DNA from: an uncultured Planctomycetaceae bacterium
GTDB taxonomy: Bacteria; Planctomycetota; Phycisphaerae; SM23-33
Assembly: GCA_964564965.1 (NCBI GenBank)
Contig: CAZMDT010000001.1
Span: 13,237-46,160 of the forward strand
DNA: 32,924 bases
Direction: 5' to 3'
Of this stretch, positions 3,459-20,774 are shown piece by piece. The number at the start of each line of letters is the position of its first letter. Positions within the stretch are counted from its first letter, which is position 1. A program made the translations under genes and the position numbers. The notes below the pieces were generated by a model. That model saw nothing but the letters and a program-made list of their open reading frames with translations. It was not told the origin of the DNA and searched no databases.

Positions 3459-3483
3459 CGCCCTCCGCTCCCTTCCTCGCGCC

Positions 3484-4398
3484 TCAGGCCCCGACCGCCA
3501 TCGCCGACAGGCGGGCGAGCGCCTCGGCGGCGTCGATGCCCCCGGCCTCACGCCCCGCGCCCGTCAGCAGGGCCTCGATGTTCCCCCCGAAGATGCCCCG
3601 CAGCGTGTCCCCCGGCAGCCGCAGCCGCGAGACGCAGTCCACGAAATCCCTCATCCGGTGCACACGCCCCGCGCACGGCATGGGATAGTCCGTGCCGAAG
3701 ATGACCTTCTCCGCCCCGATGCGCCCCAGCAGCTCCGGGGTGAGGATCTGCTCGATCTCGTAGAGATACGCGGCCGTGTCGATCCACACGTTCGGGTTCT
3801 TCTCGACGACCATGAACGCCTCGTTGTGCCAGAGCGTGCCGAGGTGGGTGAGCATGATCCGCAGTTGGGGGAAGCGGACGGCGACGTCGTCGATGAGGAT
3901 GGGGTTGGCCTGCGCCAGGCGGCACAGCGCCCCGAACGGCGTGGTGCCGACGTGGAAGACCACGGGGATGTTCAGCTCGGCCGCCTTCTCGTACACCGGC
4001 CAGACCGCCTCGTCGTTGGGGAAGAAGTCCTGCAGGGGCGGATGGAGCTTCAGGCCCCACAGGCCGAGGTCGACGACCGCCCGCTCCAGCGCCGCGGGCG
4101 CGCCGGGGGAGGTCGGGTCGACGGAGGCGAAGCCGATGAGCCGGTCGGGATAGGCCGCGCACAGCCCCGCCACGTACTCGTTCGAGGCGTAGACGATGGG
4201 CGCCTCCACGGCGTAGAGAATCGACCGGGCGATGCCGGCCTCGTCCATCTGGGCGATGAGCGCCTCGGGCATCAGCAGCGGCAGCGTGGACTCGATGTCC
4301 TTGAGGACACTAATGCCTCCGGGCAGACGCGTCCCCTCCATCCGCCGGACCATCGCGTCCAGCTCGATCATGTGGACGTGTGCGTTGATGATCTCCAC
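3484..4398 (-). CDS. Amidohydrolase-2 (PF04909-like) metal-dependent hydrolase or decarboxylase
   Basis: ORF 3484..4503, trimmed to GTG 4398, which is preceded by GGGAGAGGG with a 6-nt spacer. This places the HxH metal motif (IINAHVHM) at the extreme N-terminus, as is usual for the family. Further metal ligands fit: VVFHVG, MLTHLG, FGTDYP. The longer start at 4503 cannot be excluded. Confidence 0.75.
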   Translation of the reverse strand: MEIINAHVHMIELDAMVRRMEGTRLPGGISVLKDIESTLPLLMPEALIAQMDEAGIARSILYAVEAPIVYASNEYVAGLCAAYPDRLIGFASVDPTSPGAPAALERAVVDLGLWGLKLHPPLQDFFPNDEAVWPVYEKAAELNIPVVFHVGTTPFGALCRLAQANPILIDDVAVRFPQLRIMLTHLGTLWHNEAFMVVEKNPNVWIDTAAYLYEIEQILTPELLGRIGAEKVIFGTDYPMPCAGRVHRMRDFVDCVSRLRLPGDTLRGIFGGNIEALLTGAGREAGGIDAAEALARLSAMAVGA

Positions 4399-4593
4399 GA
4401 TCGGCCCTCTCCCGGCGCCTTGGCGGCTTGGCGCTTTGCGATCCCATGACAGCGGTACTGTACCCGGTGCCTCATCGGCGCAATCGGGGCGGGCCTGAAG
4501 CACGAAGCGCGGGCGGAGCGGCGCACCGCCGGCACCGGGCCGGCGGCGCGCCGACTTGGAGGCACCCGTTGTGTCCGCGGCGCGCGGGCCGGC

Positions 4594-5538
4594 CTACGAG
4601 CCGGCGCTGGCCGCGGGCTCGGCCACCGCCTGGGCGGCCAGGACACGCTGGTAGATCGTCTCCCCCCACCGCTGCCGGATGCCCTCGCGCTGCGCGTCGG
4701 TGCACGCGGCGAGCACGCGCGAGCTGTTCACGAACAACTCCACGAGCAGCGTGGCGTCGGCGAACAGCCGGTCCGACAGAATCTGCCACGTCGCGATGTA
4801 CCGGTGGTAGGGATTGTGGTCGATGTAGTAGCTCTTCAGGAACGATTCCACGTCCCCCTCGCCCGCCACGACGCCCTTGAACCGCTCGCCCAGGCTCGTC
4901 AGGTCCAGCCGCACCACCACGACCGGGTCCTCGATGTCCTTCGAGTAGCTGCGGACCTCGCCGAGCTGCTCGAACCCCAGCAGGGCGTAGAACCGCGCGT
5001 GGCCCGGACTGACGGTGCCGACGAAGTCGGTGCACCCGGCCGCCATCGCGTGGGCGAACGAGCAGCGCATCAGCTCGGTCATCACGGCGCTGTTGCGGTG
5101 CGATTCGGCCACCAGCCAGTTGGTGCCCTCACACACCTTGCGGCCCCCGGCGCGGAGCCGGTCGATCTCCGCCCGGAACGCCTTGTCGGTGGGCAGGCCG
5201 AACTCGGGGCTGTCGACGACGACGCTGGTGACGCCGACGACCTTGCCGTCCGCCCTGGCGATGAACGTGGCCGTAGCGGGCAGGGCCTCGAAGGGGCGGA
5301 TGCGAACGCCCGTGGGGTCGGGGCGGATGTAGCCCTGCTCCACGAAGATGTCGTGGACGAGCCGGTAGGCGGCCAGCAGGTCTTCCACGGTGGTCGCGCG
5401 GGCGATGGCGGCGCCCTCGGTGTCGTTGCTGAACAGCCCGGCGCGGCGCAGCAGGGCCATTCTGCGGTCCTCGCGCTTGCGCTTTCCGTGCGGGCGGGGG
5501 GTGCCCTGAGCCTTTGCAGATGCACTACTTACGGACAT
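4594..5538 (-). CDS. FeeM-like GNAT N-acyltransferase (N-acyl amino acid synthase; PEP-CTERM/exosortase-associated acyltransferase type)
   Basis: ORF 4594..5538. ATG 5538 is preceded by GGAGG with a 7-nt spacer. The core (TVEDLLAAYRLVHDIFVEQGYIRPDPTGVRIRPFEALPATATFIARADGKVVGVTSVVVD...FGLPTD...VCEGTNWLVAE) follows the FeeM / autoinducer-synthase-like GNAT pattern. The genomic context is a PEP-CTERM gene plus an EPS sugar transferase. Confidence 0.6.
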   Translation of the reverse strand: MSVSSASAKAQGTPRPHGKRKREDRRMALLRRAGLFSNDTEGAAIARATTVEDLLAAYRLVHDIFVEQGYIRPDPTGVRIRPFEALPATATFIARADGKVVGVTSVVVDSPEFGLPTDKAFRAEIDRLRAGGRKVCEGTNWLVAESHRNSAVMTELMRCSFAHAMAAGCTDFVGTVSPGHARFYALLGFEQLGEVRSYSKDIEDPVVVVRLDLTSLGERFKGVVAGEGDVESFLKSYYIDHNPYHRYIATWQILSDRLFADATLLVELFVNSSRVLAACTDAQREGIRQRWGETIYQRVLAAQAVAEPAASAGS

Positions 5539-6999: not shown

Positions 7000-7677
7000 T
7001 TATCGCGCGCCTTTGTCCCTCAACTTGCCGATGGTCCTCGCCAGAATGGCAAGTTCCATGCTCCATTTTCGACCCTGGATGTACTCCAGGTCTGCCTCCA
7101 GTTTGTGTCGGAACGCCTCCACGCTCGTGTCGTAGCCATTGCGGATCTGCGCCAGGCCCGTGATGCCCGGGCGAACCGCCAGCCGCTTGCGAACGTCGGG
7201 ATAGTGCTTCTCCAGCTCGTCGAGGATTTCCGGCCGCTCCGGCCGGGGCCCCACGAGCGACATCTCGCCCTTGATCACGTTGATGAGCTGCGGCAGCTCG
7301 TCGACGTGGCTGAGCCGCATCCACCGGCAGGCCGCGATGACTCGCGGGTCCTTGTGCCGGGCCCACGTGGCGCCGCTGCGCTTCTCGGCGTCCGTGTACA
7401 TGGTCCGGAGCTTGTACATGGTGAACGGCCGGCCGTTCCGACCGACCCGGACCTGCTTGAACAGCACCGGCCCGCGGCTGAACAGCTTGATCATCAGCAC
7501 GCAGAGGAGGATAACCGGCAGCGCCAGCACCAGCGCCACCAGCGCCAGCAGCGTGTCCACGACTTCCTTCGCCACGTCGAAGTACCGGCGGGCGAGATGG
7601 GACAGCAGACCGGCAAAGCCGCTGCCGACCGCCACCAAGGTTACCGGCTCAGGCATCTCCTGCTCCTCCTGCTCCAT
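7000..7677 (-). CDS. Polyprenyl-phosphate sugar phosphotransferase (bacterial sugar transferase family; EPS/O-antigen priming enzyme, WbaP/EpsL-like short form)
   Basis: ORF 7000..7677. One TM helix is followed by the conserved core: PVLFKQVRVGRNGRPFTMYKLRTM...DELPQLINVIKGEMSLVGPRPERP...RPGITGLAQI. An alternative start at ATG 7656 sits after a stronger AGGAGGAGCAGGAG tract. Confidence 0.9.
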   Translation of the reverse strand: MEQEEQEMPEPVTLVAVGSGFAGLLSHLARRYFDVAKEVVDTLLALVALVLALPVILLCVLMIKLFSRGPVLFKQVRVGRNGRPFTMYKLRTMYTDAEKRSGATWARHKDPRVIAACRWMRLSHVDELPQLINVIKGEMSLVGPRPERPEILDELEKHYPDVRKRLAVRPGITGLAQIRNGYDTSVEAFRHKLEADLEYIQGRKWSMELAILARTIGKLRDKGAR

Positions 7678-9533: not shown

Positions 9534-11099
9534 TTAGCGCCTTCGCCGCCGGATGTAGCCGCCGATCGCGGTGGCGCCCAGGAGCACCGCAAATGCGGAA
9601 ACGGGTTCGGGGATGACCGCCACGGCGTCGGTCTCCAGGACGTTGATCATGCCCATCCCGGCGAACCACATGTCGTCGGTGAACTGGGCGTTGGTGCCCG
9701 GCGCGCCGTACGTGCCGATCGGCTGCGGCTCGTCGTTGAAGAATAGCTTCAACACGTCGTCGATGCCCTGGTGGTTCAGATAGAGCAGCCCGTAGCCCGA
9801 GCCGTGCTCGAGCGTCAGGACAGCCGTGTCGGCCAGCGTGTCGTCGAAGTTGAGCTGGAGCGTCCCCAGCTTGCCGACCGTCACGTCGCCGGTGCCGAGG
9901 GCGGCGGGGTCGTTGGCGATGAGCGTGCCGGCCTCGACGATGGTGCCGCCGGAGTAGGACGAGGCGCGGCTGAACGTCTGCGTGCCGGTGCCGGTCTTGC
10001 GGATCGAGCCGACCTGCCCCGCCGCCTCGGCGATCTGGCGGTCGAACACGTACACCCCGCCGCCGGTCAGGTTCAACTCCGTGTCGATGAGGCCCACGCT
10101 GTCGCCGAGGATGATCGTGTCGCCGTTGCCGCCGCCGGAGGTGGTCTTCAGGCCGGCGCAGCTCGGCGTGGCCGTCAGGAAGTTCACCGTCGCCCGCCCG
10201 ACGTTCACCACGGCGTTCTGCACGGCGCCGTCATTCGTGATGTTGATCGTCGCGGCGGTGCCGCCCCTGTCCGAATAGAGCTCGCCCGTCCACAGCGGGT
10301 TGCTCCCGCTGATGGTCAGCGGCCCGTTGTCGTCCATGTTGAAGGTCAGCGCGCCCTCGATACTGCCGGCCAGCGTGGACCCCTCGGACTTCTGGGTCAC
10401 GCTCGATCCCGCCAGGCCCTTCAGCGTCCCGCCGGCGTTGAGCTCCAGCCTCCGGAAGCCCAGGAAGCTGTACGTGTCCAGGTCCAGCGTGGCGCCGTTC
10501 ATGACCTTGAACCGCCCGCAGTTGGTGTTGCTCGGCACGTCGCCGACCAGCTTGAACGTCCCCTCGTGGACGTTCAGCGCGTAGTACGAGTTGTTGTTGC
10601 CCGTGAACTTGCCGGCGAACTCAAGCGTCCCGCCGCCTTCCTTCCAGAACTCGTGCCCGCCGGCCACCGTCGGGCTCCACGCCAGCGTCGTGGCGGCGGC
10701 GACGTTGATGTGCGTCTCACCGTTGTCGCCCTTCAGCGTCACCGAGTCCATCTGCGCGCCCGTGACGTCGCTGATCGTCAGCTCCTTGTTGCCCTTGACC
10801 TTGATCGAGTAGCCCGTCACGTCGATCTTGAGCGCCCCGGCGGTGATGTCGGTGGTCACGTACACCTCTCCCGCGTTGCCGCCGAAGACGGCCGTGTCGG
10901 TCGCGTTCGTCGCGTTGTTCCACGCAACGAATCCTGCCCCGGTGTCCCAGTAGGCGTTGGAGGTGTTCCAGTCTCCCGCGCCGCCGGTGGGGGCGCCGGT
11001 GGTTCCATCGACGTCCCAGATGAGGTCGCTGCCGAGGCTCATCCCGGCCGTCGCCAGAATCATCGCCAGCACCGCGAGCAGTTGTCTCTGCCTTGTCAT
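9534..11099 (-). CDS. PEP-CTERM-anchored protein with autotransporter-associated beta-strand (PATR-type) repeats
   Basis: ORF 9534..11222, trimmed to ATG 11099 (MTRQRQLLAVLAMILATAGMSLG, a signal peptide), which is preceded by AGAGGAGAG. It carries repeats of the G(T/G)LxLxG...GGTxVxxGTL type, for example IRKTGTGTQTFSRASSYSGGTIVEAGTLIAND. The C-terminus is VIPEPVSAFAVLLGATAIGGYIRRRRR. Confidence 0.85.
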   Translation of the reverse strand: MTRQRQLLAVLAMILATAGMSLGSDLIWDVDGTTGAPTGGAGDWNTSNAYWDTGAGFVAWNNATNATDTAVFGGNAGEVYVTTDITAGALKIDVTGYSIKVKGNKELTISDVTGAQMDSVTLKGDNGETHINVAAATTLAWSPTVAGGHEFWKEGGGTLEFAGKFTGNNNSYYALNVHEGTFKLVGDVPSNTNCGRFKVMNGATLDLDTYSFLGFRRLELNAGGTLKGLAGSSVTQKSEGSTLAGSIEGALTFNMDDNGPLTISGSNPLWTGELYSDRGGTAATINITNDGAVQNAVVNVGRATVNFLTATPSCAGLKTTSGGGNGDTIILGDSVGLIDTELNLTGGGVYVFDRQIAEAAGQVGSIRKTGTGTQTFSRASSYSGGTIVEAGTLIANDPAALGTGDVTVGKLGTLQLNFDDTLADTAVLTLEHGSGYGLLYLNHQGIDDVLKLFFNDEPQPIGTYGAPGTNAQFTDDMWFAGMGMINVLETDAVAVIPEPVSAFAVLLGATAIGGYIRRRRR

Positions 11100-11326
11100 G
11101 ACTTCTCTCCTCTGAGTTTGCCTTCTCGCTTGTTCATCTCCACGCCTCCACGCCGGCGGCTTCGCCGCGGGCGCGCAGACCCATACCGCCCTGTACCCAT
11201 GGTCCCTACGCTGGAGTTGCACCGCTCCTTGTTCAAGAGCCTCTCAGATACTTCGGGTTCCCTATGCCTGCCGTTATTTACCCTACATGGTCAGGCCGTC
11301 CGGGCGAACCGGAACTGCCAAGCAGG

Positions 11327-11367: not shown

Positions 11368-11396
11368 AAAAAAGCGGGAAAGGTGGTTCCCCCCGC
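11368..11396 (-). terminator. Rho-independent-type terminator closing the SecA-like operon
   Basis: Minus strand reads GCGGGGGGAA-CCACC-TTTCCCGC (a GC stem with G-U pairs), followed directly by TTTTTT (11373-11368). It begins 13 nt after the TAG stop at 11409-11411. Confidence 0.55.
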
Positions 11397-11408: not shown

Positions 11409-13445
11409 CTATCGCTCGGCGCCGGCGAAGCCGAGGTACTCGTCCAGCCAGTCGTCGGTGCGGAGGACGCCCTTCCGCTGGCGGAGCGCCATCCGCTCGG
11501 CGTGGTGCTGGGCGAGACCGAACACCCGCCGCGTCAGCAGCGACGACAGCTCGCGCTCCGTCCGCCCGAACCGCCGCCTCAGCGCCGCCGACAGGTGCGG
11601 GGCGTGCCGCACGACCAGCTCGTCGGCGAGGCTGACGATGGCCTGGCAGCTTCCGGGGTCGCCCTGGCGTCCGGCCCGGCCGAAAAGCTGCCGGTCGATC
11701 CGCCCCGCCTCGTGGCGCTCGGTGGCGATGACGTGCAGCCCGCCGAGGTCGGCCACGCCGCGCCCGAGCTTGATGTCGGTGCCGCGCCCGGCCATGTTGG
11801 TGGCCACGGTGATCCGTCCCTGCTGCCCGGCGGCGGCGACGATCTGGGCCTCCTCGGCGTGGCGGACGGCGTTGAGCACCTGGTGCTCCAGCTCGCGCTC
11901 GGCGAGCAGGCGGCTGAGGTGCTCGCTGGCGCGGACGCTGCGGGTGCCGACGAGCACGGGCCGGCCGGTGGCGTGGAGGCGGGCGATCTCCTCGACGACG
12001 GCGCGCCACTTGGGCGCTTCGGAGGCGAAGACGCGGTCCGGGCGTCGCTCGCGGACGCACGGGCGGTTGGTGGGCACCACCACGACCGGCAGGCGGTAGA
12101 TCTGCCAGAACTCGCGCCGGGCCTCGGCGGCGGTGCCCGTCATGCCCGCCAGCCGGCGGTACAAGCGGAAGAACCGCTGGAAGCTCACCCGGGCGTACGT
12201 GTCCTTCGGCGGGTTGACGGCAATGCCTTCCTTGGCCTCGACGGCCTGGTGGAGCCCGTCGCGCCATTCGCGGTCCGGCATCAGCCGACCCGTGAACTCG
12301 TCCACGATGCACACCGCCTCCTCGTGAAGCACGTACTGCTTGTCGCGGAGGTAGAACTCATCGGCGGTGAGGGCCTGGACGACAAGCTCCTCGCCTCGCC
12401 GGGCCCCGCCCCAGACGCCGCCCAGCCCGCCCGACATCTCGGCGATGCGCCGCTGGCCCGCGGGCGTCAGCTCCACCTCGCGGTAGCGGGCGTTCACGCG
12501 GTAGTGTGCGCCGGGCGCCAGCTCGTTCGCCACGGCGGCGGCCTGCTCGAACGCCGCCACCTGCTCGGGGTTCGGGGCGTCGCCCGAGATGATCAGCGGC
12601 GTGACGGCCTCGTCGATGAGGATCGAGTCGGCCTCGTCCACGATGGCGTACTGCAGGCCGCGCTGCACCAGCCGCCCCACCCCGCCCCGCGCGCCCTCGG
12701 CCAGGCCCGCCAGCAGCACCTCCGGCAGCGACCGCATCCGCCCCAGCGCCAGGCGGTCGCGCAGAAAGTCCGCCGTCACCTCCTTGTTGGTGCAGTAGGT
12801 GATGTCCGCCTGGTAGGCCTCGCGGCGCTGGGCGGGCTCCATGCCCTGCTCGAGGTGCGCCACCCGCAGGCCGCAAAAGCGGTAGATGGGGCGCATCCAC
12901 TCGGCGTCGCGCCGGGCGAGGTAGTCGTTGAAGGTGATGACGTGGCACCCGCGCCCGCGCCAGCCGGCCACCGCCGCCGGGAGCGTGGCGGTGAGGGTCT
13001 TGCCCTCGCCGGTGGCCATTTCGGCGATGGCGCCGGCGTGGAGGGCGAAGGCGCCGGCGACCTGGACGGGGAAGTGGGTCTCGCCGATGCGCCGGCGGGC
13101 GACCTCGCGGACGAGGGCGAAGGCGCGGTCGAGGTCGTCCGCGCGGTCGCGTCCGCGGCGGAAGCGGGCGCGGAACGCCTCGGCCTGGCCGCGCAGGGCG
13201 GCCTCGCCCATGTCGCGAAAGGCCCTCTCCAGCGCGAGCACGCGCCGGGCCCGGCGGAGGAAGCTCCCGGTGCGGACGGACAGGCGCTTGGCGGCGCCGG
13301 CGGCGCTCAGCCAGAGAGCGTCCAGGCCTTTGGGCAGCTCATCGCGCGCTCGCGGCTCGGCGAGCATCCGCCAGGTTGCGCTGGCCACGGCCGTCACGAA
13401 CGGCTGAACCTCCGCAGCAGCAGTTGCCGCAGGCTGCGCCACCAC
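11409..13445 (-). CDS. SecA-like ATPase, C-terminally truncated paralogue (NBD1 - preprotein cross-linking domain - NBD2 - stub of helical scaffold)
   Basis: ORF 11409..13445. It shows strong collinear identity to SecA motifs: Walker A (AEMATGEGKTLTATLPA), VITFNDYLARRDAEWMRPIY, ADITYCTN, DEAD-like (IVDEADSILIDEAVTPLIISG), a PPXD segment, WRDGLHQAVEAKEGI, AGMTGTA, PVLVGT, ATNMAGRGTDIKLG and TERHEAGRIDRQLFGRAGRQGDPG. The protein ends about 70 aa after NBD2. By comparison with E. coli SecA (recalled sequence), the wing domain, two-helix finger and C-terminal tail are absent. The start is GTG 13445 (a 52-nt overlap with the upstream gene) or ATG 13367. Confidence 0.85.
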   Translation of the reverse strand: MVAQPAATAAAEVQPFVTAVASATWRMLAEPRARDELPKGLDALWLSAAGAAKRLSVRTGSFLRRARRVLALERAFRDMGEAALRGQAEAFRARFRRGRDRADDLDRAFALVREVARRRIGETHFPVQVAGAFALHAGAIAEMATGEGKTLTATLPAAVAGWRGRGCHVITFNDYLARRDAEWMRPIYRFCGLRVAHLEQGMEPAQRREAYQADITYCTNKEVTADFLRDRLALGRMRSLPEVLLAGLAEGARGGVGRLVQRGLQYAIVDEADSILIDEAVTPLIISGDAPNPEQVAAFEQAAAVANELAPGAHYRVNARYREVELTPAGQRRIAEMSGGLGGVWGGARRGEELVVQALTADEFYLRDKQYVLHEEAVCIVDEFTGRLMPDREWRDGLHQAVEAKEGIAVNPPKDTYARVSFQRFFRLYRRLAGMTGTAAEARREFWQIYRLPVVVVPTNRPCVRERRPDRVFASEAPKWRAVVEEIARLHATGRPVLVGTRSVRASEHLSRLLAERELEHQVLNAVRHAEEAQIVAAAGQQGRITVATNMAGRGTDIKLGRGVADLGGLHVIATERHEAGRIDRQLFGRAGRQGDPGSCQAIVSLADELVVRHAPHLSAALRRRFGRTERELSSLLTRRVFGLAQHHAERMALRQRKGVLRTDDWLDEYLGFAGAER

Positions 13446-15592
13446 TGCACGGCGAGCGGCTTGGCCGGCAGCTCGAAGCGGGCGATGACGCGCTGCCCGG
13501 GGCGCAGGGCCACGCCGGGGTCGGGGCGGACGCGGACCTGGAACACCTGCTCCGTCGGGCGGGCGCCGGAGGGGTCGGTGGGATCGACGGCGATGGGCCC
13601 GCCCGCGCGATACCCCAGCGCCGCGGAGGGGAGCTTCTTCTCCCCGACGCGGAGGGTGGGCAGCCGCTCGCCCGTGAGGTACTCCCCGGGCCGCCCGCGG
13701 ACGCGCAGCGAGAGGCGCCGGCGCGACTCGTCGATCAGCCGCTTGTCGTCCTGCCCGACGACGGCGCGAACCATGAGGTTACCGAACGCCAGCGGCGCCA
13801 CGAAGCCGATGGGCTGCCCCCGGCGGACGTACACGCCGCGCATCCGCTCGATGTCGGGGGCGATCCACACGCCGGGGGCCGGCGCCGGCACCCGCAGCCG
13901 CTCCTGACGCTGCTCGAACCGCTCGATCTCCCGCTCCAGCCGGGCGATCTCGCGGGCCTTCTGCTGGGCGGCGGTGATGTCCCGCTGCGGACCCGGCGCC
14001 TGGAGGAGCCGCTTCTCGCGCTCGAGCTTGCTCAGGTCCGCCCGGCGGCGCTCGATCTCGGAGGCCAGCTCGGGGTTCGCCATCACCACCACGGGGGGCC
14101 CGGCGGGGCGGCAGTCGGCCCCGGGGGGCAGGAACTCCGTGATGAAGCCGTCCTCGGCGGCGAACACGCCGGCCATCTCGACCGGCTCCACGACGCCCTC
14201 GACGCGGACGCGGTCGGGCGCGCTGACGGCCCCGACGGCGGCGACGGCGGCCGCCACGACCACCAGCACGGTGGCCGCCGCGCGCCCCCGCACGCGGGCC
14301 AGCTCGTTGCTGGTGGCGAGGTAGCGCACGAACTTCACGAGCGGCACGCAGATCCACGTGAACGCCGCCACCGCGGCGAACGCCACCGCCACCGCCGCCA
14401 GCGGCTTCGGCAGCCGGTTCGTCAGGAACAGCAGGATCATCGCGAAGATGAAGAACCGGTAGAGCGTCGAGGCGATGCCGTAGAAGACGAACCAGAACGG
14501 CTCGCCGCGGGTGTTGGCGGGGTTGCGCGCCTGCCGGACGCTCCAGACGTAGCGGCGGACGAGGTAATAGAGGTACTGCCGGCTGCGCTGAGCGAGGTTG
14601 GGAATCTCCAGCAGGTCGGACAGGATGTAGTACGCGTCGTAGCGGAGCAGCGGGTTGCCGTTGAACAGCACCGAGGAGACGCTCGCCACGAACATGATGT
14701 TGTAGCAGATGGCCTTGAGCGTGCCGGGCTCGGCACTGGCCCAGACGACGGCCGCCACGGCGGCGATGGCCAGCTCGACGATCATCCCCGCCGCCCCCAC
14801 GATCACCCGCCGCCACTTGCCCCGGAACGCCCACGCGCTGGAGGCGTCCACGTACGGCAGCGGGGTGAACACGAGGAACATCACGCCCATGGCGTGGACC
14901 TCCCCGCCCTGCCCCGCCTGCCGGCCGAAACGCTTCACCGCGAACGCGTGACCGAACTCGTGGCACACCTTCGCGATCACCAGGCTCAGGTAGAACAGCG
15001 GCAGGGCCGAGGGGTCGAGGATGTTCTCGGCGGCGCTGACGAGTTCTTCGCCGCGCCCGACGACGCTGTAGATGCCCGCCGCCAGCATCCCCAGCCACAG
15101 CACCAGCCCCGGCCAGGAGAACACCCAGCCGAAGACCGCCACCCACCGGTCGAGGAACTTATCGGGGTCCAGCAGGGGCAGGCGGATGAACAGCAGGTTC
15201 ATCACGGTGCCCTGGATCTCGCGGATGCGGCGCTTGCGGTAGCGCTTGAGCAGGCCCTCGGCGTCGGGGGGCAGGTCGGCCTGGAGAAGGTTCGAGGTGT
15301 ACAGCTGCCCGAGCAGTTGGATGGCCTCGCCCTGGGTGGGGGCGGCGTCGCCGAGCTGCTCGTTGCAGATGCCCCAGACGTCGGCGACGGTCTTCCGCCC
15401 GTCGAGCATCGCCACGAAGCGGTACGCCGGCTCGTTCAGGCGGAAGTAATCGTTGGTCGAGGGGTCCTCCAGCACGTGCCACATCTGCCCGCGGAAGTGC
15501 TGCCGGCTGACCTGCACGGTCGATCGCAGGCGCGGCTGGAGGCCCGCCACCCGGTACCACGACTCGCTGAATGTCGGGCGGTCAACCGGCAC
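13394..15592 (-). CDS. Three-part fusion: PqqD/RRE-like N-domain, site-2-protease (peptidase M50) membrane core, C-terminal HlyD-like periplasmic adaptor
   Basis: ORF 13394..15592 with a GTG start. The N-terminus (YFRLNEPAYRFVAMLDGRKTVADVWGICNEQLGDAAPTQGEAIQLLGQLYTSNLL) resembles the PqqD peptide-binding fold. The polytopic core has HExxH (KVCHEFGHAF) and the second S2P motif NxxPxxxxD (FNGNPLLRYDAYY). After a last TM helix there is a coiled coil (ELASEIERRRADLSKLEREKRLL...IARLEREIERFEQRQERL) and beta-barrel-like segments, as in HlyD adaptors. Confidence 0.8.
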   Translation of the reverse strand: MPVDRPTFSESWYRVAGLQPRLRSTVQVSRQHFRGQMWHVLEDPSTNDYFRLNEPAYRFVAMLDGRKTVADVWGICNEQLGDAAPTQGEAIQLLGQLYTSNLLQADLPPDAEGLLKRYRKRRIREIQGTVMNLLFIRLPLLDPDKFLDRWVAVFGWVFSWPGLVLWLGMLAAGIYSVVGRGEELVSAAENILDPSALPLFYLSLVIAKVCHEFGHAFAVKRFGRQAGQGGEVHAMGVMFLVFTPLPYVDASSAWAFRGKWRRVIVGAAGMIVELAIAAVAAVVWASAEPGTLKAICYNIMFVASVSSVLFNGNPLLRYDAYYILSDLLEIPNLAQRSRQYLYYLVRRYVWSVRQARNPANTRGEPFWFVFYGIASTLYRFFIFAMILLFLTNRLPKPLAAVAVAFAAVAAFTWICVPLVKFVRYLATSNELARVRGRAAATVLVVVAAAVAAVGAVSAPDRVRVEGVVEPVEMAGVFAAEDGFITEFLPPGADCRPAGPPVVVMANPELASEIERRRADLSKLEREKRLLQAPGPQRDITAAQQKAREIARLEREIERFEQRQERLRVPAPAPGVWIAPDIERMRGVYVRRGQPIGFVAPLAFGNLMVRAVVGQDDKRLIDESRRRLSLRVRGRPGEYLTGERLPTLRVGEKKLPSAALGYRAGGPIAVDPTDPSGARPTEQVFQVRVRPDPGVALRPGQRVIARFELPAKPLAVQWWRSLRQLLLRRFSRS

Positions 15593-15604
15593 GGCGTGTT
15601 GCCC

Positions 15605-17491
15605 TCACCACCACAGCTTCATGCGGAGCCAGTTCACCAGCCGGCGCGACCAGATCCACGCGTACCGCCGCCGGTCGATGTGGATTCGGGCGGCGCCCTT
15701 CATGCCGGGGCTCATCCAGTCGGCCGAGGTCTCCAGCCGGACGCGAACGCGAAAGACGTTCTGCTGCTGCTCCACCTCGGCGACCGGGCTGATCCACTCC
15801 ACGGTGAACGGGATGCGCCGCTGGGTGTAGGCGGCGAAGGTCAGCTCGCCCGGCTGCCCGAGGCGGACCTCGGCGATCTGGTCCTCGGGGACGAACACCT
15901 CGGCCCGCAGGGCGGCCAGTTCGGCGACCTCGAACAGCGCCTTGCCCTTCTCCACCGCCGTGCCCACCTGGCGCTTCAGGCTCTCGCTGACGACCGTGCC
16001 GGCGAACGGGGCGGTGAGGCGCGATTCGGCGACCTTCCTCTTCAGCGGCTCGATCTCGCCCTGGCGGACCTCCTCGCCCCGCTGCTCAGAGATGGCGGCC
16101 TCGGCGTACTTGCCGTCACGCCGGTAGACGGACGCCTCCATGAGGAAGGCGGTGCGTTTGGTGTTGGCGGCCTCGAGGGCGGCTTCGAGGTCCTCGGTGT
16201 CCAGCTTCCCCAGCAGTTGCCCGGCGGCGACGGCGTCGTCCGGCTCGACCTTCACCTCGGACAGCACGCCCGCGAACGGCGCCGAGACAAACTCCCGCCG
16301 CCGCGACTCCAGCACGAACGTGCCGCCGGCGTTGTAGTCGCCCCGGGCGAATACCAGGAACACCACGCACGCGAACACGACCAGGGCGATGAGCTTGGCC
16401 CACGTGTGCTTGGCGCCGAGGAGGAAGGCCACCCCGCGCCGGGCGGCGGCCGCCGCCTTCGCGCCGAACCACCGGTCCTGGCGGTGCAGGTTCTCCAGCC
16501 GCGCCGTGCACTGTTCGCCCGTCAGCCGGTGCGTCTCCACCTCCTCCGCGGCGAACGGCTCCTCCGCGCGCCGCTCGGCGGTGAGCACGGCCACCGGCTC
16601 GCCCCCCTGCCGCAGGGGCAGGCTCACCACGGCCGACGGACCGTGCCGACGCGCCAGGTCCTGCGCCGCGCGGTTCACGATCGGCGCCTCCGGCGGCGAG
16701 GGATGGACGATCTCGGCGTCCTGGTCGAGGCACTCCTCCATGGCGGCCTCGATGTCCTGGACGAGCTTCATCTTGCGGCTGAACTTTTCGGTGTGGCTAA
16801 GGGCCTTGAGCTGGACGTACCGCCCCTTGAGGAAGCCGAGGGCGGCGCGTTCGCACTTCCAGCGGGCGGCGATTTCGTTGCAGCAGGCCATCGCCGCGCC
16901 GGCGAACCGCTGCTGCTCGTTGAGGGCGGCGACGACCTCCATGGCCCTTCGCAGGCGGGCGAGGTCCCCCTGGCGCTGCTGGAGCGACAGGCGCATCTCG
17001 TACAGGCTCAGCAGGCTGATGCTCAGCTCCAGGCGCTCGCGGGCGGCAACGAGGGCGGCGCGGCTGGGCGTGGCGACGTGGAACACCGCCAGCCCGCGCG
17101 TGCCCTGGTCGTCGCGCACCGGGATGAAGATGAGGCTGCGCCGGGCGGGCTGGCCGTAGAGGTCGTCGGCGGCGTGGAGGGCCTGCACCGTCGTGCCGTC
17201 GGCGGCCAACGCCTTCGGGGCGAGCGGCACCGCCTGCGCCAGCCAGGCCGGGGCCGTGCCGCCCTCGGGAATCGCCGGAGACGCCGCCAGCACCTCCGCC
17301 CGTCCGCCGGCGCCGCCGCGCAGAAACGCCCCCCCGGACGCCGACGCCAGCCGGCACTGCACCGCCAGCAGCTCCGCCAGGAACGCCTGCGGCGGGCCCT
17401 CGAAACGGCTCAGGTGCTCCACCAGCTCCGCCGCCGTTCCCGTTGGCGGCGGCACCTCCCGCTGGCCGATCTGTTCGCCGCGCACGGCCAT
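15605..17491 (-). CDS. Tandem GAF-like cytoplasmic domains, TM anchor and HlyD-family periplasmic adaptor
   Basis: ORF 15605..17491. The N-terminal approx. 330 aa form two GAF-like modules (pattern recognition only). These are followed by one TM helix (WAKLIALVVFACVVFLVFA), then lipoyl/barrel-sandwich adaptor motifs (FVSAPFAGVLSEVKVEPDDAVAAGQLLGKLD ... LTAPFAGTVVSESLKRQVGTAVEKGKALFEVAE). Confidence 0.75.
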   Translation of the reverse strand: MAVRGEQIGQREVPPPTGTAAELVEHLSRFEGPPQAFLAELLAVQCRLASASGGAFLRGGAGGRAEVLAASPAIPEGGTAPAWLAQAVPLAPKALAADGTTVQALHAADDLYGQPARRSLIFIPVRDDQGTRGLAVFHVATPSRAALVAARERLELSISLLSLYEMRLSLQQRQGDLARLRRAMEVVAALNEQQRFAGAAMACCNEIAARWKCERAALGFLKGRYVQLKALSHTEKFSRKMKLVQDIEAAMEECLDQDAEIVHPSPPEAPIVNRAAQDLARRHGPSAVVSLPLRQGGEPVAVLTAERRAEEPFAAEEVETHRLTGEQCTARLENLHRQDRWFGAKAAAAARRGVAFLLGAKHTWAKLIALVVFACVVFLVFARGDYNAGGTFVLESRRREFVSAPFAGVLSEVKVEPDDAVAAGQLLGKLDTEDLEAALEAANTKRTAFLMEASVYRRDGKYAEAAISEQRGEEVRQGEIEPLKRKVAESRLTAPFAGTVVSESLKRQVGTAVEKGKALFEVAELAALRAEVFVPEDQIAEVRLGQPGELTFAAYTQRRIPFTVEWISPVAEVEQQQNVFRVRVRLETSADWMSPGMKGAARIHIDRRRYAWIWSRRLVNWLRMKLWW

Positions 17492-17526
17492 GCGCTTCTA
17501 CCCATCCCGCCCCGGACGAGGAGGCA

Positions 17527-17895
17527 CTACAGGTTGTCCTTGCGTCGCTTGGCTACGTCCAGCTCCAGCTCGCCGAACTGGTCCTCGTGCTGGCGGATGA
17601 CCCGCGACAGCGTGATGGCCAGCCGCTTGGCGGAGTGGTAGTTGAGGATGATGCGCTCGTTGACCTGGAAGATGATCTCCGGCTGCCCCTGCTGCTGGGT
17701 AGCGGGATTGACCACGTTCAGCCCGAAGTCGATCATGACCTCCTCGGCGGTGGCGTTGGTGCGGAAGGCGTTGGCGTAGCTGCTGCGCATGTTCCGCTCG
17801 TCCATGCGGATGCGGACCTGCTGCTGCCCGGTCTGCTGGCGCGCCTGCTGGTCGATGGGATGCTCCTCGGGGGTCTTGGCGTCGTCTTTGGCCAT
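17527..17895 (-). CDS. DUF3467-family small protein with a Gln-rich N-terminus
   Basis: ORF 17527..17895. ATG 17895 is preceded by AGGGAG, which overlaps the stop codon of the upstream HlyD gene. The core SSYANAFRTNATAEEVMIDFGLNV...NERIILNYHSAKRLAITLSRVIRQHEDQFGEL matches the DUF3467 pattern as I recall it (YAN..........E..lDFg ... a.rL...L...i..yE..FG). It has no signal peptide and no TM helix. Confidence 0.65.
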   Translation of the reverse strand: MAKDDAKTPEEHPIDQQARQQTGQQQVRIRMDERNMRSSYANAFRTNATAEEVMIDFGLNVVNPATQQQGQPEIIFQVNERIILNYHSAKRLAITLSRVIRQHEDQFGELELDVAKRRKDNL

Positions 17896-17905
17896 CAGTG
17901 GCTCC

Positions 17906-18808
17906 CTATCTGTGGGTGTCGGTTTCGCCCGGCCTTGGCGCCGCCGGGGCCTCAGGAAAGCTCACGCGCACCCGCTGCCCGGCCCGTCGGCCGGCGGGGT
18001 TCGGCAGCTCCACGCGGACCGTCAGCGTCTCGCTGGCGGCGTCGGCCACCGAGGCCACGAACGTGATCGTCCCCGTCACCGTCTCGCCCGTTCGGGCGAA
18101 CGTCACGTCGGCCTTGCCGCCCGATGCCAGCGCGCCCGCCTGCACGCCCGGCACCGGCACGTCGATCCGCAACGGGTCGGTCTTCACGATCCGGATGAGC
18201 TTCTCCAGGGCGTCGACGGACTCCCCCGCCTCGACCACGACACGCTCCACCATGCCGTCGATCGGGCTGAGCAGCTTCATCCGCGCGACCTGAAGCTCCG
18301 CCTCGCGCAGCTTCAGCCCGTCCTGCTCGTGTTGCAGCTTCGCCAGCTCCAGCGAAAGCTCCGCGATCGTCACGTCCAGCTGCGCGTGCTCCACCTCCGC
18401 CTGCGTGGAGGCGCCGCTCCGGGCGGCGTCCTCGATCTTCTTCAGGTCCAGCTTCTTCTGCGCGAGCTGCGCCTCGGCGGCGCGGACGCGCGTCCGGTCG
18501 GTCGCCTGGGTGCGGAGCTGCTCGAGCTGCACGCGTTCGGCCGAATCGTCCTGGCTGATCAGCAGCTCCCCCGCCTTCACCTGCTGACCGTCCTTCACCA
18601 GGACCTTGGCGATCTGCCCCGGGCGGACGAAGGAGAGGGTGACGTCCTTGCTGGGGATGGTGACGGCCTCAATGCCTTCGGCGGCGCAAGTTGCGGCCGC
18701 GCACAGCAACACCGCCGCTGTTGCCGCCGGCCGGGCGCCCCGCGCCGCCGCGGACCCCACGCGCCGCCACAAGGCGCTCGGGGCCCGCTGGTGACTTGCA
18801 TCGCTCAT
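17906..18808 (-). CDS. HlyD-family periplasmic adaptor (membrane fusion protein)
   Basis: ORF 17906..18889, trimmed to ATG 18808 (MSDASHQRAP...), which is preceded by GAGGTG with a 6-nt spacer. The longer version would overlap the predicted promoter. It has a signal anchor (AATAAVLLCAAATCAA), a lipoyl-like motif (VRPGQIAKVLVKDGQQVKAGELLISQDD), a coiled coil, and LLSPIDGMVERVVVEAGESV. Confidence 0.8.
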   Translation of the reverse strand: MSDASHQRAPSALWRRVGSAAARGARPAATAAVLLCAAATCAAEGIEAVTIPSKDVTLSFVRPGQIAKVLVKDGQQVKAGELLISQDDSAERVQLEQLRTQATDRTRVRAAEAQLAQKKLDLKKIEDAARSGASTQAEVEHAQLDVTIAELSLELAKLQHEQDGLKLREAELQVARMKLLSPIDGMVERVVVEAGESVDALEKLIRIVKTDPLRIDVPVPGVQAGALASGGKADVTFARTGETVTGTITFVASVADAASETLTVRVELPNPAGRRAGQRVRVSFPEAPAAPRPGETDTHR

Positions 18809-18861
18809 GGGCTTCACCTCAGTCAAGACCGCTTCCGCGCAAGAGAACGCCCCGACGCCGT

Positions 18862-18889
18862 ATTGTAACTCGACAGTTTCTCCCGGCAA
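18862..18889 (-). promoter_or_regulatory. sigma70-like promoter of the HlyD/DUF3467/GAF-HlyD/M50-HlyD/SecA-like operon
   Basis: Minus strand reads TTGCCG (18889-18884), a 16-nt spacer, then TACAAT (18867-18862). It lies about 55 nt upstream of ATG 18808. Confidence 0.45.
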
Positions 18890-19110
18890 CTACGGTCTTT
18901 TCCGCCCGCCGCGGCGGCGATCGGTTGTTCGGCAACAGTTTGATGCACGGTCACAGTCCACAGGAAGGTGGAAGGGGAAGGCGAGGGGGCCGCACGCGCC
19001 GCGGCGAGGCGCCGCTGCGTGCCTTCACTCCGACCGGGCCCTTCGACTCCCCCTGCGCCCGCCTTCGGTCCCGGCCCTGGGTCGAGGGAGGTGGATTTTT
19101 CAGTTCGCGC

Positions 19111-19139
19111 TTGACGAAATGCCGGATCGACGGTATGAT
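19111..19139 (+). promoter_or_regulatory. sigma70-like promoter of the LacI-family regulator operon
   Basis: TTGACG (19111-19116), a 17-nt spacer, then TATGAT (19134-19139). It sits immediately upstream of the operator palindromes and 92 nt before ATG 19231. Confidence 0.55.
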
Positions 19140-19143
19140 GGCC

Positions 19144-19176
19144 CTTAACGTTAAGGCCCAAGCCCGTAACGTTAAG
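19144..19176. promoter_or_regulatory. Two LacI-type palindromic operators (O1 CTTAACGTTAAG, O2 CGTAACGTTAAG)
   Basis: O1 (19144-19155) is a perfect 12-bp palindrome with a central CG. O2 (19165-19176) differs at one base. Their centres are 21 bp apart, two helical turns. O1 starts 5 nt after the -10 hexamer, so it covers the predicted transcription start. Confidence 0.55.
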
Positions 19177-19230
19177 ATCATCTTGAGCGAGTAGTCGTTG
19201 TCCCAGCGATCTGGAGCCAACCGGCAGACC

Positions 19231-20262
19231 ATGGCCGTCACGTTGAAGGACGTCGGAGAGAAGCTGGGCCTCAGCGCCGTGACCGTCTCCTGCGCGCTGC
19301 GAAACACCGGCGACGTGGCCGAGCCGACCCGCCGCCGCGTGCTGCGGGCCGCCCGCGAGCTCGGCTACCGCCCCAACGCCTTCGCCCGCTCGGTTCGCAC
19401 CGGGCGGTTCGGCAACGTCGCGCTGACCATGAGCATGGAGGCCACATGGAGCCAGACGCCCGAGCCGCTGCTCCGTGGCATCGAGCGGGCGCTGGCCGAG
19501 CGGGACATGCTGCTGACGATCGCCGCGCTGCCGGACGAGCAGCTCACCGACGAGGGGTTCGTGCCGAAGATGCTTCGGGAATGGATGGCCGACGGGCTGC
19601 TGATCAACTACAACGCGCGGATCCCCGCGCGGATGGTGGAGCTGATCGAGCAGTACGAGCTGCCGTCGGTGTGGATCAACTCGAAACACACGGGCGACTG
19701 CGTGTACCCCGACGACTACGCCGCCGGGCGCGAGGCCGCCTGCCGACTGCTGGCGCTGGGGCACCGGCGGATCGCTTTCGTCGATTTCTCCAGTCCCCCG
19801 CCGGACCGCAAGAGCCACTACAGCCAGATCGACCGGCAGCAGGGGTACCGCGACGCGCTGGCCGAGGCGGGGCTCGCCGGGCGGCGCGTGGGCGACCGCC
19901 AGAGCCTCGGCCGGGGGGAGATCGTCTCCTCCCTGCGCGCGATGCTCGCCGAGCCCCGCCGCCCCACCGCCGTGGTCACCTACAACATGCCCGAGGCGGA
20001 GGCGGCGTTCATGGCCGCCGGGCTCGCCGGCCTGGAGGTCCCCCGCGACCTGTCGATCATCACCTGCTGCATCGGCCGGGCCGAGGGGCTGGGGATGATC
20101 TTCGCCAACATGGTGATCCCCGAGCAGCAGCTCGGCAAGCAGGCCGTGACGCAGCTTCTCACCAAGATCGACGACCCGTCGCGGCAGACACCCGCGACGG
20201 CCGTTCCGTTCACGTTCGATGAAGGGCAGTCGCTTGGCCGCCCTTCCGGAGATGACAGCTAA
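19231..20262 (+). CDS. LacI/GalR-family transcriptional regulator
   Basis: ORF 19198..20262 (TTG start), trimmed to ATG 19231. This places the HTH (VTLKDVGEKLGLSAVTVSCALRN) at the N-terminus, as in the family. It is followed by ELGYRPNAFARS and a periplasmic-binding-protein-like sugar-binding core. Confidence 0.9.
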   Translation: MAVTLKDVGEKLGLSAVTVSCALRNTGDVAEPTRRRVLRAARELGYRPNAFARSVRTGRFGNVALTMSMEATWSQTPEPLLRGIERALAERDMLLTIAALPDEQLTDEGFVPKMLREWMADGLLINYNARIPARMVELIEQYELPSVWINSKHTGDCVYPDDYAAGREAACRLLALGHRRIAFVDFSSPPPDRKSHYSQIDRQQGYRDALAEAGLAGRRVGDRQSLGRGEIVSSLRAMLAEPRRPTAVVTYNMPEAEAAFMAAGLAGLEVPRDLSIITCCIGRAEGLGMIFANMVIPEQQLGKQAVTQLLTKIDDPSRQTPATAVPFTFDEGQSLGRPSGDDS

Positions 20263-20294
20263 GCGCAGGGTTCCGAACCTGGAAGGAGAGAAGA

Positions 20295-20774
20295 ATGGAG
20301 ACGAGACGACTTGCGGCAACGGCCTGGGCGGTGGTGCTGGCGGTCGGCGCGGCGGCAACGGGGGCGACGTACACCGAGGACTTCGAGATCGGCGGGAGCC
20401 CCACGTTCGGCACGAGCGACCCGCGGGCGGCGTCGGAGGTGGGCTGGACGGCCTTCAGCGATTCGGCCTTCTCCGACGCGCTGACGGAGGTGTTGACGCA
20501 CGGCGGCGCGGGAAACGGCGTGTGCGTCGCCAACATGAAGTACACCGGCAAGCTGGACTTCACCACCCGCTACGCGTTCATGGAAAGCGACACCACCAAC
20601 GCCACCAACACCAATCCGGAGTACCAGGAGACGGTCTGGTACACCGACGAGTTGCTGTCGGGCGAGCCGGCCGACGCCACGCTCGACATCGACGGCGCCA
20701 CGGCCACCTGGCAGCTCGAGGGCGGCACGAACGACACCGGCAACGGCAACAACGGCGGGCGGTCGAGCCTGTGA
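20295..20774 (+). CDS. N-terminal fragment (signal peptide plus domain) of a PEP-CTERM protein split by a frameshift
   Basis: ORF 20295..20774. A strong RBS (GGAAGGAGAG) precedes it. The signal peptide is METRRLAATAWAVVLAVGAAATGA. It stops at TGA 20772-20774, directly after a GGCGGGCGG run. There is no anchor or sorting signal of its own. Confidence 0.6.
   Translation: METRRLAATAWAVVLAVGAAATGATYTEDFEIGGSPTFGTSDPRAASEVGWTAFSDSAFSDALTEVLTHGGAGNGVCVANMKYTGKLDFTTRYAFMESDTTNATNTNPEYQETVWYTDELLSGEPADATLDIDGATATWQLEGGTNDTGNGNNGGRSSL

Follow-up and report, generated by a model that had tools for sequence, protein, structure and literature searches.

A membrane protein of three joined domains, encoded in a 32,924-nt stretch of DNA from an uncultured Planctomycetaceae bacterium (contig CAZMDT010000001.1; here ‘the window’, G+C ~70%, to which position numbers refer unless a locus or record is named), is probably the part of an exporter resembling type I secretion systems (T1SSs) that recognises the LEPR-XLL leader of giant surface proteins and cuts it off during their export. 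The protein itself—leader reader, membrane-embedded protease and periplasmic arm—is real and belongs to a large family. Nor is its gene (13394–15592, hereafter the target) an orphan: it is part of a conserved operon with genes for two further membrane-fusion proteins (MFPs), a DUF3467 protein and a truncated SecA-like ATPase, often accompanied by TolC. This reading is carried by the domain architecture of the protein, the conservation of its active site, the operon with its preserved gene order, and the close linkage of LEPR-XLL genes in the genomes. We further infer the topology of the protein, leader binding by its N-terminal domain, cleavage by its protease core, the motor role of the SecA-like ATPase and the identity of the channel.

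The fusion protein and its operon

Positions 13394–15592 hold exactly one open reading frame (ORF), encoding 732 aa on the minus strand with the stop codon included. A preliminary description of the window, made from the letters alone, had proposed a single polypeptide of three domains at this place, and all the strings that it quoted are present in the translation. Read on the plus strand, the same positions contain stops throughout and no long open frame, which places the gene on the minus strand. Because a window of ~70% G+C is full of long shadow ORFs, GC content was checked by codon position; the values for the target (0.71/0.47/0.97) are those of a genuine coding gene rather than of a high-GC shadow. 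A plus-strand ORF of 1421 aa at 13376–17641 failed this test, matched no family and was rejected as a high-GC shadow of genes on the opposite strand.

The family is large. Databases hold more than 6,600 relatives, and the best 120 are nearly all full length at 55–71% identity, those with named sources coming mostly from metagenome-assembled genomes (MAGs) of Planctomycetota/Phycisphaerae; homologues go under such names as ‘PqqD family peptide modification chaperone’ (NCBI) and ‘putative peptide zinc metalloprotease protein’. Searched exhaustively, 1.84 billion cluster representatives (50% identity clustering) yielded 4,068 clusters at E≤1e-30. Among the best 150 clusters the great majority aligned end to end (~710–750 aa), with a handful shorter and apparently truncated. 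Such end-to-end alignment across many clusters indicates that the three-part fusion is an old and stable architecture, not an accident of assembly or annotation. A sequence search with the whole protein against PDB chains gave no matches.

The first ~100 aa had been likened to the PqqD fold, and this assignment held up. Pfam PF05402 (PqqD) matched aa 39–103 over profile positions 2–67 of 67, by a narrow margin (24.5 bits against a gathering score of 23.4), and is also precomputed for many homologues of the target; LNEPAYRFVAMLDGRKTVADVWGICNEQLG, the stretch quoted as PqqD-like in the preliminary description, lies at aa 52–81. In an AlphaFold model of residues 1–150 (mean pLDDT 86–94 in blocks over aa 11–100, ~90 over aa 20–100) a three-stranded antiparallel sheet (strands 27–33, 36–43 and 48–52) is followed by three helices (54–62, 69–83 and 87–99), that is, the beta-beta-beta-alpha-alpha-alpha topology of a winged helix. 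The top Foldseek matches of this model are the lasso-peptide RREs TbiB1 (5v1u and 5v1v) and 6jx3 (target TM-score 0.65–0.72), each solved with a bound leader peptide; the next are RRE-bearing enzymes that act on peptides that are synthesised ribosomally and modified post-translationally (RiPPs), namely LynD, TigE, MadB, TglHI and CteB. Pfam match, modelled topology and the identity of the top fold matches agree, and together make the predicted PqqD/RRE fold convincing.

The HEFGH and NGNPLLRYD motifs, from which a site-2 protease (S2P) had been recognised in the letters alone, are invariant: H211, E212 and H215 of the first motif and N311, N313, P314, R317 and D319 of the second are unchanged in 73/73 orthologues, including verrucomicrobial and other relatives at only 29–38% identity. 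The NCBIfam model NF041824, which describes the intramembrane metalloprotease of daptide biosynthesis and is itself of RRE–S2P type, matched aa 20–424 over profile positions 1–375 of 379 (149.4 bits, E=1.5e-43); as its equivalog cutoff is 300 bits, the target is homologous to and colinear with this model, not an equivalog of it. The S2P core is divergent, but to judge from these residues it is an active-looking enzyme. Both the number of helices in the structural model and the loop counts under the positive-inside rule speak for seven membrane passes, with the N-terminus in and the C-terminus out, an arrangement that would place the RRE domain in the cytoplasm and the adaptor domain in the periplasm, in line with the preliminary description.

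For the last ~270 aa, described earlier as MFP-like, the full-length AlphaFold model (pLDDT 85, pTM 0.64) predicts an alpha-hairpin of two helices (507–531 and 539–564) with beta-domains on either side, these being the lipoyl/barrel-sandwich and beta-barrel domains of adaptor architecture. Foldseek matched this region to MexA (1vf7, E=4.7e-11) and to AcrA, MacA, ZneB and EmrA (E to 2e-7, 275–290 aligned columns), and hhalign aligned it with the MFPs of its own operon, at 98.7% probability (E=2e-16) for the adaptor part of the GAF-MFP and 94.4% for the small MFP. One homologue of the target carries PF25973. The C-terminal 275 aa thus share the hairpin, lipoyl and beta-barrel architecture of MexA, AcrA, MacA and EmrA, but the hairpin is short (~25 residues per helix) and the membrane anchor is a whole S2P protease where those proteins have a single helix or a lipid.

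The target is the fourth of five tightly packed minus-strand genes, which run in the order small MFP, DUF3467, GAF-MFP, target, SecA-like (Table 1). The small MFP exceeded the cutoff of TIGR01730 (RND_mfp; 127.8 bits against 94.9) and matched Pfam HlyD_D23 and HlyD_3. The GAF-MFP is predicted to consist of a ~360-aa cytoplasmic part with a GAF domain, one transmembrane (TM) helix (364–382) and a periplasmic HlyD-type adaptor. Searches of the PDB by single sequence and by profile found no relative of known structure for the DUF3467 protein. The last gene, the SecA-like one, probably starts at a GTG at 13397–13395 that overlaps the target stop (GTGA), giving a product of ~662 aa. This overlap, a terminator-like hairpin after the SecA-like gene and a promoter-like site beyond it mark the operon as a discrete unit.

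In common with SecA and SecA2, the SecA-like protein keeps both nucleotide-binding domains (NBD1 and NBD2) and the preprotein cross-linking domain (PPXD), with Walker A, DEAD and motif VI intact. It aligns only to residues 23–604 of B. subtilis SecA, however, and therefore has no helical wing domain, two-helix finger or C-terminal tail. These are the parts that couple SecA to SecYEG and SecB, and their loss sets the protein apart from SecA and SecA2 alike. A similar truncation of SecA is reported inside giant Omnitrophota proteins (bioRxiv 10.1101/2023.11.21.568195); that preprint was rejected as an account of the present module, as its subject is SecA-like domains within giant proteins.

Synteny was followed in 79 loci drawn from one-genome-per-species contigs, most of them under the label Planctomycetota, several from Verrucomicrobiota and a few being MAGs that carry other labels. 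The gene order GAF-MFP, target, SecA-like is essentially invariant in these loci, and the small MFP, with or without DUF3467, lies either upstream of the module or ~2 kb downstream on the opposite strand. DUF3467 is present in ~25/79 loci, and a TolC-like gene of the OEP family (~590 aa) adjoins the module in 37/79; in the window, no stretch gave a homologue of OEP. Within the module an ABC gene was seen neither here nor, by gene table and module search, in related loci, the corresponding position being taken by the SecA-like ATPase. The module also occurs in Proteobacteria.

The fusion architecture is not new: family members have already been named by NCBI, and the module was published, in silico, in 2015. 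Kamneva, Poudel and Ward 2015 (PLoS One 10:e0129066; PMC4452313) describe ‘secondary SecA_DEAD domain proteins’ lacking SecA_SW, co-encoded with Peptidase_M50/HlyD, GAF/HlyD and HlyD proteins and sometimes OEP, in Planctomycetes, Verrucomicrobia, Proteobacteria (Methylobacterium extorquens AM1 META1p2399-2402), Nitrospirae and Chlorobi, the last with a single member. Their proposal, from purely computational work, is a T1SS-related machine in which SecA_DEAD would be the ATPase and the membrane might be crossed through a pore formed by the M50 protein; the biological role they term ‘completely unknown’. All four components of their module are present in one operon of the window (11409–18889), and theirs is the same module as ours: a SecA_DEAD protein without scaffold/wing, M50/HlyD, GAF/HlyD and small HlyD proteins, and OEP sometimes adjacent. 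Their paper mentions neither a PqqD/RRE domain nor DUF3467, SapC or a candidate substrate, and relative to it the LEPR-XLL link set out below is new. Literature searches found no functional follow-up of the module and no paper combining PqqD, M50 and HlyD, and M50–adaptor fusions are not discussed in two large reviews of tripartite pumps, where ‘M50’ turned out to be a residue number and part of a DOI.

LEPR-XLL giant proteins beside the module

The proteobacterial relatives of the target point to a type of cargo. Searches of PLSDB plasmids with tblastn recovered full-length homologues in cultured Alphaproteobacteria (34–37% identity, 97% coverage), and more distant ones in Gammaproteobacteria and Rhodospirillales. 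In 9/9 proteobacterial loci inspected, a giant gene (2,300–12,900 aa) lies immediately upstream on the same strand (Table 1); a Rhizobium johnstonii locus was uninformative, the gene standing at the start of the record with an incomplete gene table. In Methylosinus, Mesorhizobium, Rhizobium and Thalassospira, DUF3467 separates the giant gene from those for the MFPs.

The N-termini of these giants share a leader, in which a basic stretch is followed, 10–50 residues in, by F-E-x-L-E-P-R-L-L-L-[SN]-A; MKRILKMLRGNRRSRQCPQGLGTPMFERLEPRLLLNAVPY is one example of a LEPR-XLL leader. A subgroup formed by Kosakonia and Azospirillum has the variant LEPR[FM][ML]FD[AG]A, the Azospirillum cargo being annotated DUF4347. 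The NCBIfam model for LEPR-XLL, NF012209, scored above its cutoff for the N-termini of Methylosinus and Mesorhizobium and for 10/10 further leaders tested, eight of them from Planctomycetota loci, and below threshold for Kosakonia. A hydrophobic core of Sec type is missing from the leaders (maximum 15-residue hydropathy 0.1–1.75). The cargo proteins are otherwise unrelated, with calcium-binding, LamG-like, Ig-like and DUF4347 annotations, and the leader is their only common feature. In Alisedimentitalea (NZ_CP123586.1, record position ~183224), the ~8,100-aa ‘calcium-binding protein’ has an annotated start at MADAL, and the frame continues upstream of it through ...RRRFIRNSRASESRGKQAVVEQLEPRLLLAAD; with the LEPR-XLL motif lying just upstream, the annotated start looks misplaced, cutting off the leader.

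Among the 79 planctomycete and verrucomicrobial loci, 15 hold a LEPR-XLL ORF, arranged divergently from the OEP/small-MFP pair, divergently from the GAF-MFP, or downstream of the SecA-like gene. Thirteen of 16 motif sites lie ≤1 kb from a module gene (median 530 bp), compared with ~26% expected from a uniform spread over 601 kb of flanks, a statistic that overstates independence because the planctomycete loci are phylogenetically related and that should be read as supporting evidence rather than as a P-value.

Some clusters have no SecA-like gene. In Kosakonia, Thalassospira and Azospirillum the variant module comprises TolC, two MFPs and the RRE–S2P–MFP protein; this variant is common on Azospirillum plasmids (13 records), and plasmid records from E. 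coli (18) and Citrobacter (8) also matched. In all three genera the RRE domain is retained as a colinear N-domain, and it is therefore not merely a dock for the SecA-like protein. After the module in Kosakonia come three paralogues annotated ‘tail fiber protein’, whose signal peptides are lipoprotein-like.

Elsewhere in these clusters, the SecA-like proteins of Methylosinus (L083:12204–14120) and Pseudosulfitobacter (L092:5514–7538) are annotated by NCBI as ‘prepilin peptidase’, labels that look mistaken given their matches to Pfam SecA_DEAD, SecA_PP_bind and P-loop_SecA (E=1e-103 and 8.5e-99). SapC-family genes stand in or beside the module at three alphaproteobacterial loci (L086:1758–2555, Alisedimentitalea; L090:6213–7043; L092:7531–8352, Pseudosulfitobacter), the assignment to Pfam PF07277 having been tested on the Pseudosulfitobacter copy; the window and the planctomycete loci gave none, and SapC may be a lineage-specific accessory part. 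In Chlorobium chlorochromatii, too, a sapC gene (Cag_662) flanks the LEPRxLL giant genes. According to a Chlorobium preprint, which mentions neither M50 nor PqqD, a secA gained by horizontal transfer (Cag_1676) belongs to the same co-expression cluster. The most recent paper on LEPR-XLL giant proteins states that their export signal is not known.

A proposed leader-reading exporter and its alternatives

Under the mechanism that we favour, the substrate, in relatives typically a very large surface protein, would carry its non-Sec LEPR-XLL leader at the N-terminus, and the RRE domain would capture that leader at the membrane face. The LEPR-XLL leader is thus the candidate ligand of the N-domain. 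The adjoining S2P active site would then cleave the leader, at or just after LEPR if the analogy with daptides holds. Where a SecA-like motor is present, it would feed the unfolded chain across the inner membrane, having kept the preprotein clamp and lost the SecY-docking parts, and the three different MFP domains would form a periplasmic duct to TolC. DUF3467 may be a cytoplasmic chaperone or adaptor, a guess made purely from its place between cargo and machinery genes. The RRE and S2P domains would, on this scheme, play the role of the C39 peptidase domain in bacteriocin ABC exporters, and the SecA-like protein that of the ABC ATPase.

The RRE–S2P part is the likely leader reader for three reasons: the fusion protein always accompanies LEPR-type leaders, even where the cluster has no SecA-like gene; the leader is all that the cargoes have in common; and there is a characterised precedent in the daptide protease MpaP. 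In MpaP an RRE is fused N-terminally to a site-2 protease, which removes a leader with the motif ELExMEAP, the motif ending at the cleavage site (bioRxiv 10.1101/2023.03.08.531785). The LEPR core, FExLEPR, resembles it in that both fit E-x-[L/M]-E-[P/A]-[R/P], a resemblance that is suggestive only. Target and MpaP have the same order of RRE and S2P core, and the daptide profile matches the target end to end. They differ in the C-terminal adaptor of the target, in its SecA-like, MFP and TolC partners and in the absence of tailoring genes nearby, whereas MpaP has no MFP domain and acts, in Gram-positive bacteria, on RiPP precursors of ~25–50 aa as part of a cluster of tailoring enzymes.

Giant adhesins and RTX proteins are exported by T1SSs such as HlyBD–TolC and LapBCE, and bacteriocins by C39-peptidase exporters (PCATs) such as CvaAB–TolC. 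The module resembles these systems in its MFP and TolC-type duct and in the very large repetitive cargo encoded beside the machinery; the PCATs, moreover, couple cleavage to export through a leader-specific protease domain that is part of their inner-membrane component, a coupling proposed for the target too. Unlike them, the module has no ABC transporter, its ATPase being SecA-like and its polytopic membrane part an S2P protease; it has three different MFP paralogues rather than a single MFP; and its signal is an N-terminal LEPR-XLL leader rather than a C-terminal RTX-type signal or a double-glycine leader.

Several points weigh against this mechanism, in addition to the relatedness of the loci noted above. 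Support for the function consists of genomic association throughout the family. The module encodes no obvious inner-membrane channel (ABC, RND, MFS or SecY-like), and the SecA-like protein cannot be the universal motor because three proteobacterial variants are without it. A LEPR-XLL gene is absent from the 32.9-kb window, and absent beside the module in 64/79 loci; the LEPR-XLL substrates of the window organism would then be encoded elsewhere in its genome. (Two loose matches to the motif in the window were rejected, both being in non-coding frames and far from an ORF start.) Identity across planctomycete classes is 55–60%, unusually high for an accessory secretion system, and could point to a housekeeping role outside the model. 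The domain assignments, too, have their weaker sides. A sequence profile of the N-domain against the PDB reached PqqD (5sxy) at E=0.34, which is not significant and made the fold comparison necessary, and the Foldseek E-values of the RRE domain are themselves modest (5e-3). Pfam M50 (PF02163), which some homologues carry, gave the target 19.4 bits against a gathering score of 27.2, over profile positions 2–106 of 221 only. Pfam HlyD models (HlyD_3 and HlyD_D23) gave the target no match at E≤1, which sets it apart from MexA, AcrA, MacA and EmrA.

The most serious rival accepts the link to the cargo. The module would export LEPR-XLL or other large proteins, while the RRE and S2P domains acted elsewhere, the protease clearing stalled substrate or processing a component of the machine and the RRE binding DUF3467, the GAF-MFP or a regulator. 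S2P enzymes are indeed established as clean-up and regulatory proteases, DUF3467 offers a conserved, small and soluble partner, and module composition and cargo linkage are the same on this account as on ours, the pairing of leader and RRE being putative. However, most loci have no DUF3467 while all have the RRE, which persists even where the SecA-like protein is absent. Homologous RRE–S2P fusions have been described as leader-removing peptidases, the LEPR and daptide motifs are similar, and the leader is the one feature that otherwise unrelated cargoes share. We consider it unlikely that these domains have such another task.

The preliminary description had taken the chain to couple processing with the export of a peptide or an anti-sigma-like substrate. 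The coupling is still the best reading; the type of cargo has not stood, as it is LEPR-XLL giants that accompany the module, and a small RiPP-type peptide or an anti-sigma factor is an unlikely cargo. The fuller RiPP reading, in which a short precursor would be bound by the RRE and stripped of its leader by the S2P, the small mature peptide then leaving through the MFP arm, as in daptide or epipeptide (YydH/LiaK) maturation, draws on the fact that RRE domains are otherwise a hallmark of RiPP pathways and that the best named match of the target is the daptide RRE–S2P model, with weak matches to NF058609 (YydH/LiaK) and to TIGR03794, the HlyD model of NHLP bacteriocins (15.5 bits, cutoff 156). 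Yet the daptide score is half of its cutoff, and the partners of the target are a translocase-type ATPase with a preprotein clamp and giant LEPR-XLL proteins. Moreover, when small ORFs (20–130 aa) around the module were clustered across 80 loci, nothing conserved emerged except the 122-aa DUF3467, the other clusters being shadow frames of the OEP gene, which agrees with the earlier remark that no precursor gene is obvious. No RiPP-tailoring, sigma or anti-sigma genes were seen in the neighbourhoods examined, and neither the window nor the syntenic loci contain the gene-cluster context of daptides (a precursor with C-terminal Thr, decarboxylase, aminotransferase and methyltransferase). A RiPP role for the target is on these grounds quite improbable. 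The preliminary description thus had the anatomy correct and a functional intuition that was broadly right; the module is not a RiPP system.

Tripartite export of a non-protein cargo (lipid, polysaccharide or small molecule), with the S2P-like core as a transporter scaffold, is very unlikely. Three MFPs and TolC do resemble drug, metal or glycolipid pumps, the absence of a classical transporter means that the polytopic S2P core must act in some unusual way, and an exopolysaccharide (EPS)/PEP-CTERM locus adjoins the operon in the window. However, strictly invariant catalytic residues are unexpected in a mere scaffold, the SecA-like protein keeps its preprotein cross-linking domain, the RRE is a peptide-binding fold, and the neighbouring EPS genes are not syntenic in relatives. 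Regulated intramembrane proteolysis, in which the S2P would cleave an anti-sigma factor or membrane-tethered regulator, the MFP-like domain would act as a sensor and the neighbours would be a regulated efflux pump, deserves the least credence of all: S2P membership with the HExxH and NxxPxxxxD motifs and the sensor-type GAF domain of the neighbouring MFP would suit it, but no sigma or anti-sigma gene was seen in the loci examined, by gene table or by module search, the C-domain is a full adaptor homologous to both neighbouring MFPs, and Pfam found none of the PDZ or CBS domains typical of regulatory S2Ps.

A leader-reading exporter would assign a machine and a signal to each other. The broader proposal, that the operon is the core of a distinct, widespread and hitherto unrecognised ‘LEPR-XLL pathway’ for the secretion of very large surface proteins, built from a leader-removing fusion, a SecA-derived motor, and three adaptors with TolC, is more tentative, and we rate it a little short of an even bet. 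If true, it would carry the leader recognition of RiPP systems over to the secretion of whole proteins, and would account for the exit of giant LEPR-XLL proteins from the cell, the 20,000–37,000-aa symbiosis proteins of Chlorochromatium among them. Many of the largest proteins of bacteria bear the LEPR-XLL tag, among them proteins of rhizobia, roseobacters, Vibrio and Chlorobium symbionts that are adhesin- or toxin-like and measure 2,000 to >30,000 aa. Should the export model itself hold, this would be the first RRE domain used for protein secretion, such domains having previously been a hallmark of small-peptide natural-product pathways, and the envelope-spanning tripartite system would have as its engine a SecA derivative and an intramembrane protease, being neither ABC, RND nor MFS; that engine differs from those of every tripartite system studied. 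The window gene itself is one more member of a catalogued family with a published module, a family of ~4,000 clusters at 50% identity that is strikingly conserved in Planctomycetota and can now be tied to a specific, widespread leader on giant proteins. Because the family occurs in the genetically tractable Methylobacterium, Rhizobium and Azospirillum, the hypothesis is directly testable.

Features and other genes of the window

Table 1. Features of the target and its operon in the window, and the giant genes immediately upstream of the module at nine proteobacterial loci.
Feature	Position (nt)	Strand	Remarks
Target gene, RRE–S2P–MFP fusion protein	13394..15592	-	732 aa; GTG start at 15592, TGA stop at 13396-13394
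PqqD/RRE-like domain, aa ~20-105	15278..15535	-	Pfam and fold prediction; predicted to be cytoplasmic
Long basic helix, aa 109-137 (KRYRKRRIREIQ...)	15182..15268	-	joins RRE to first TM helix; secondary structure of the model
S2P (M50-like) membrane core, aa 144-455	14228..15163	-	~7 TM helices and beta-hairpin 234-249
HEFGH zinc-binding/catalytic motif, aa 211-215	14948..14962	-	within TM helix (194-226)
NGNPLLRYD motif (S2P NxxPxxxxD), aa 311-319	14636..14662	-	D319 is the presumed third zinc ligand
MFP (periplasmic adaptor) domain, aa 457-732	13397..14224	-	alpha-hairpin aa 507-564 (nt 13901-14074)
Small MFP, first operon gene	17906..18889	-	up to 327 aa; true start may be further downstream
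DUF3467 protein	17527..17895	-	122 aa, soluble; Pfam PF11950, 70 bits
GAF-MFP	15605..17491	-	628 aa; Pfam HlyD_3, HlyD_D23, GAF
Truncated SecA-like ATPase	11409..13445	-	678-aa ORF; Pfam SecA_DEAD, SecA_PP_bind, P-loop_SecA
Terminator-like hairpin and T-run	11374..11396	-	directly after SecA-like stop; operon end
Promoter-like site	11354-11327	-	11/12 consensus matches; upstream of next gene
Alisedimentitalea upstream gene			~8,100 aa
Methylosinus upstream gene			~8,800 aa, then DUF3467
Mesorhizobium upstream gene			~10,500 aa, then DUF3467
Sinorhizobium chiapasense upstream gene			9,027-aa ORF
Rhizobium sp. WSM1274 upstream gene			10,175-aa ORF, then DUF3467
Pseudosulfitobacter upstream gene			~12,900 aa; named ‘LEPR-XLL domain-containing protein’ by NCBI
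Thalassospira upstream gene			4,033 aa, then DUF3467; named ‘LEPR-XLL domain-containing protein’ by NCBI
Kosakonia upstream gene			2,347 aa
Azospirillum upstream gene			3,489 aa

Divergent from the first operon gene, at 19198–20262 on the plus strand, lies a gene for a LacI-family regulator, which could regulate the operon and is not syntenic in relatives. A minus-strand ORF of 511 aa at 18823–20358 was considered as a TolC and rejected: Pfam gave it no match, its GC content by codon position did not pass the test, and it shadows the LacI-family gene.

On the other side of the operon, the next gene (9534–11222, minus strand) encodes a 562-aa PATR-repeat protein with a Sec signal peptide and a PEP-CTERM tail (VIPEP...RRRRR). 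It was rejected as cargo of the module on account of that signal and tail, of its own promoter-like site past the terminator, and of its lack of synteny in relatives. A polyprenyl glycosylphosphotransferase, which also matches the XrtA/PEP-CTERM glycosyltransferase family, is encoded at 7000–7677 (minus strand); together the two genes suggest an exosortase-type surface-protein/EPS locus unrelated to the module.

Further away, a 1177-aa protein encoded at 27878–31411 (minus strand) has good coding statistics, a signal-peptide-like N-terminus after an internal Met and no Pfam match. Finally, a run of minus-strand genes at 1108–5538, comprising ThiF-family, Amidohydro_2 and FeeM-type N-acyl amino acid synthase genes and one for a 554-aa protein without a family match, may be a small acyl-amino-acid biosynthetic cluster.

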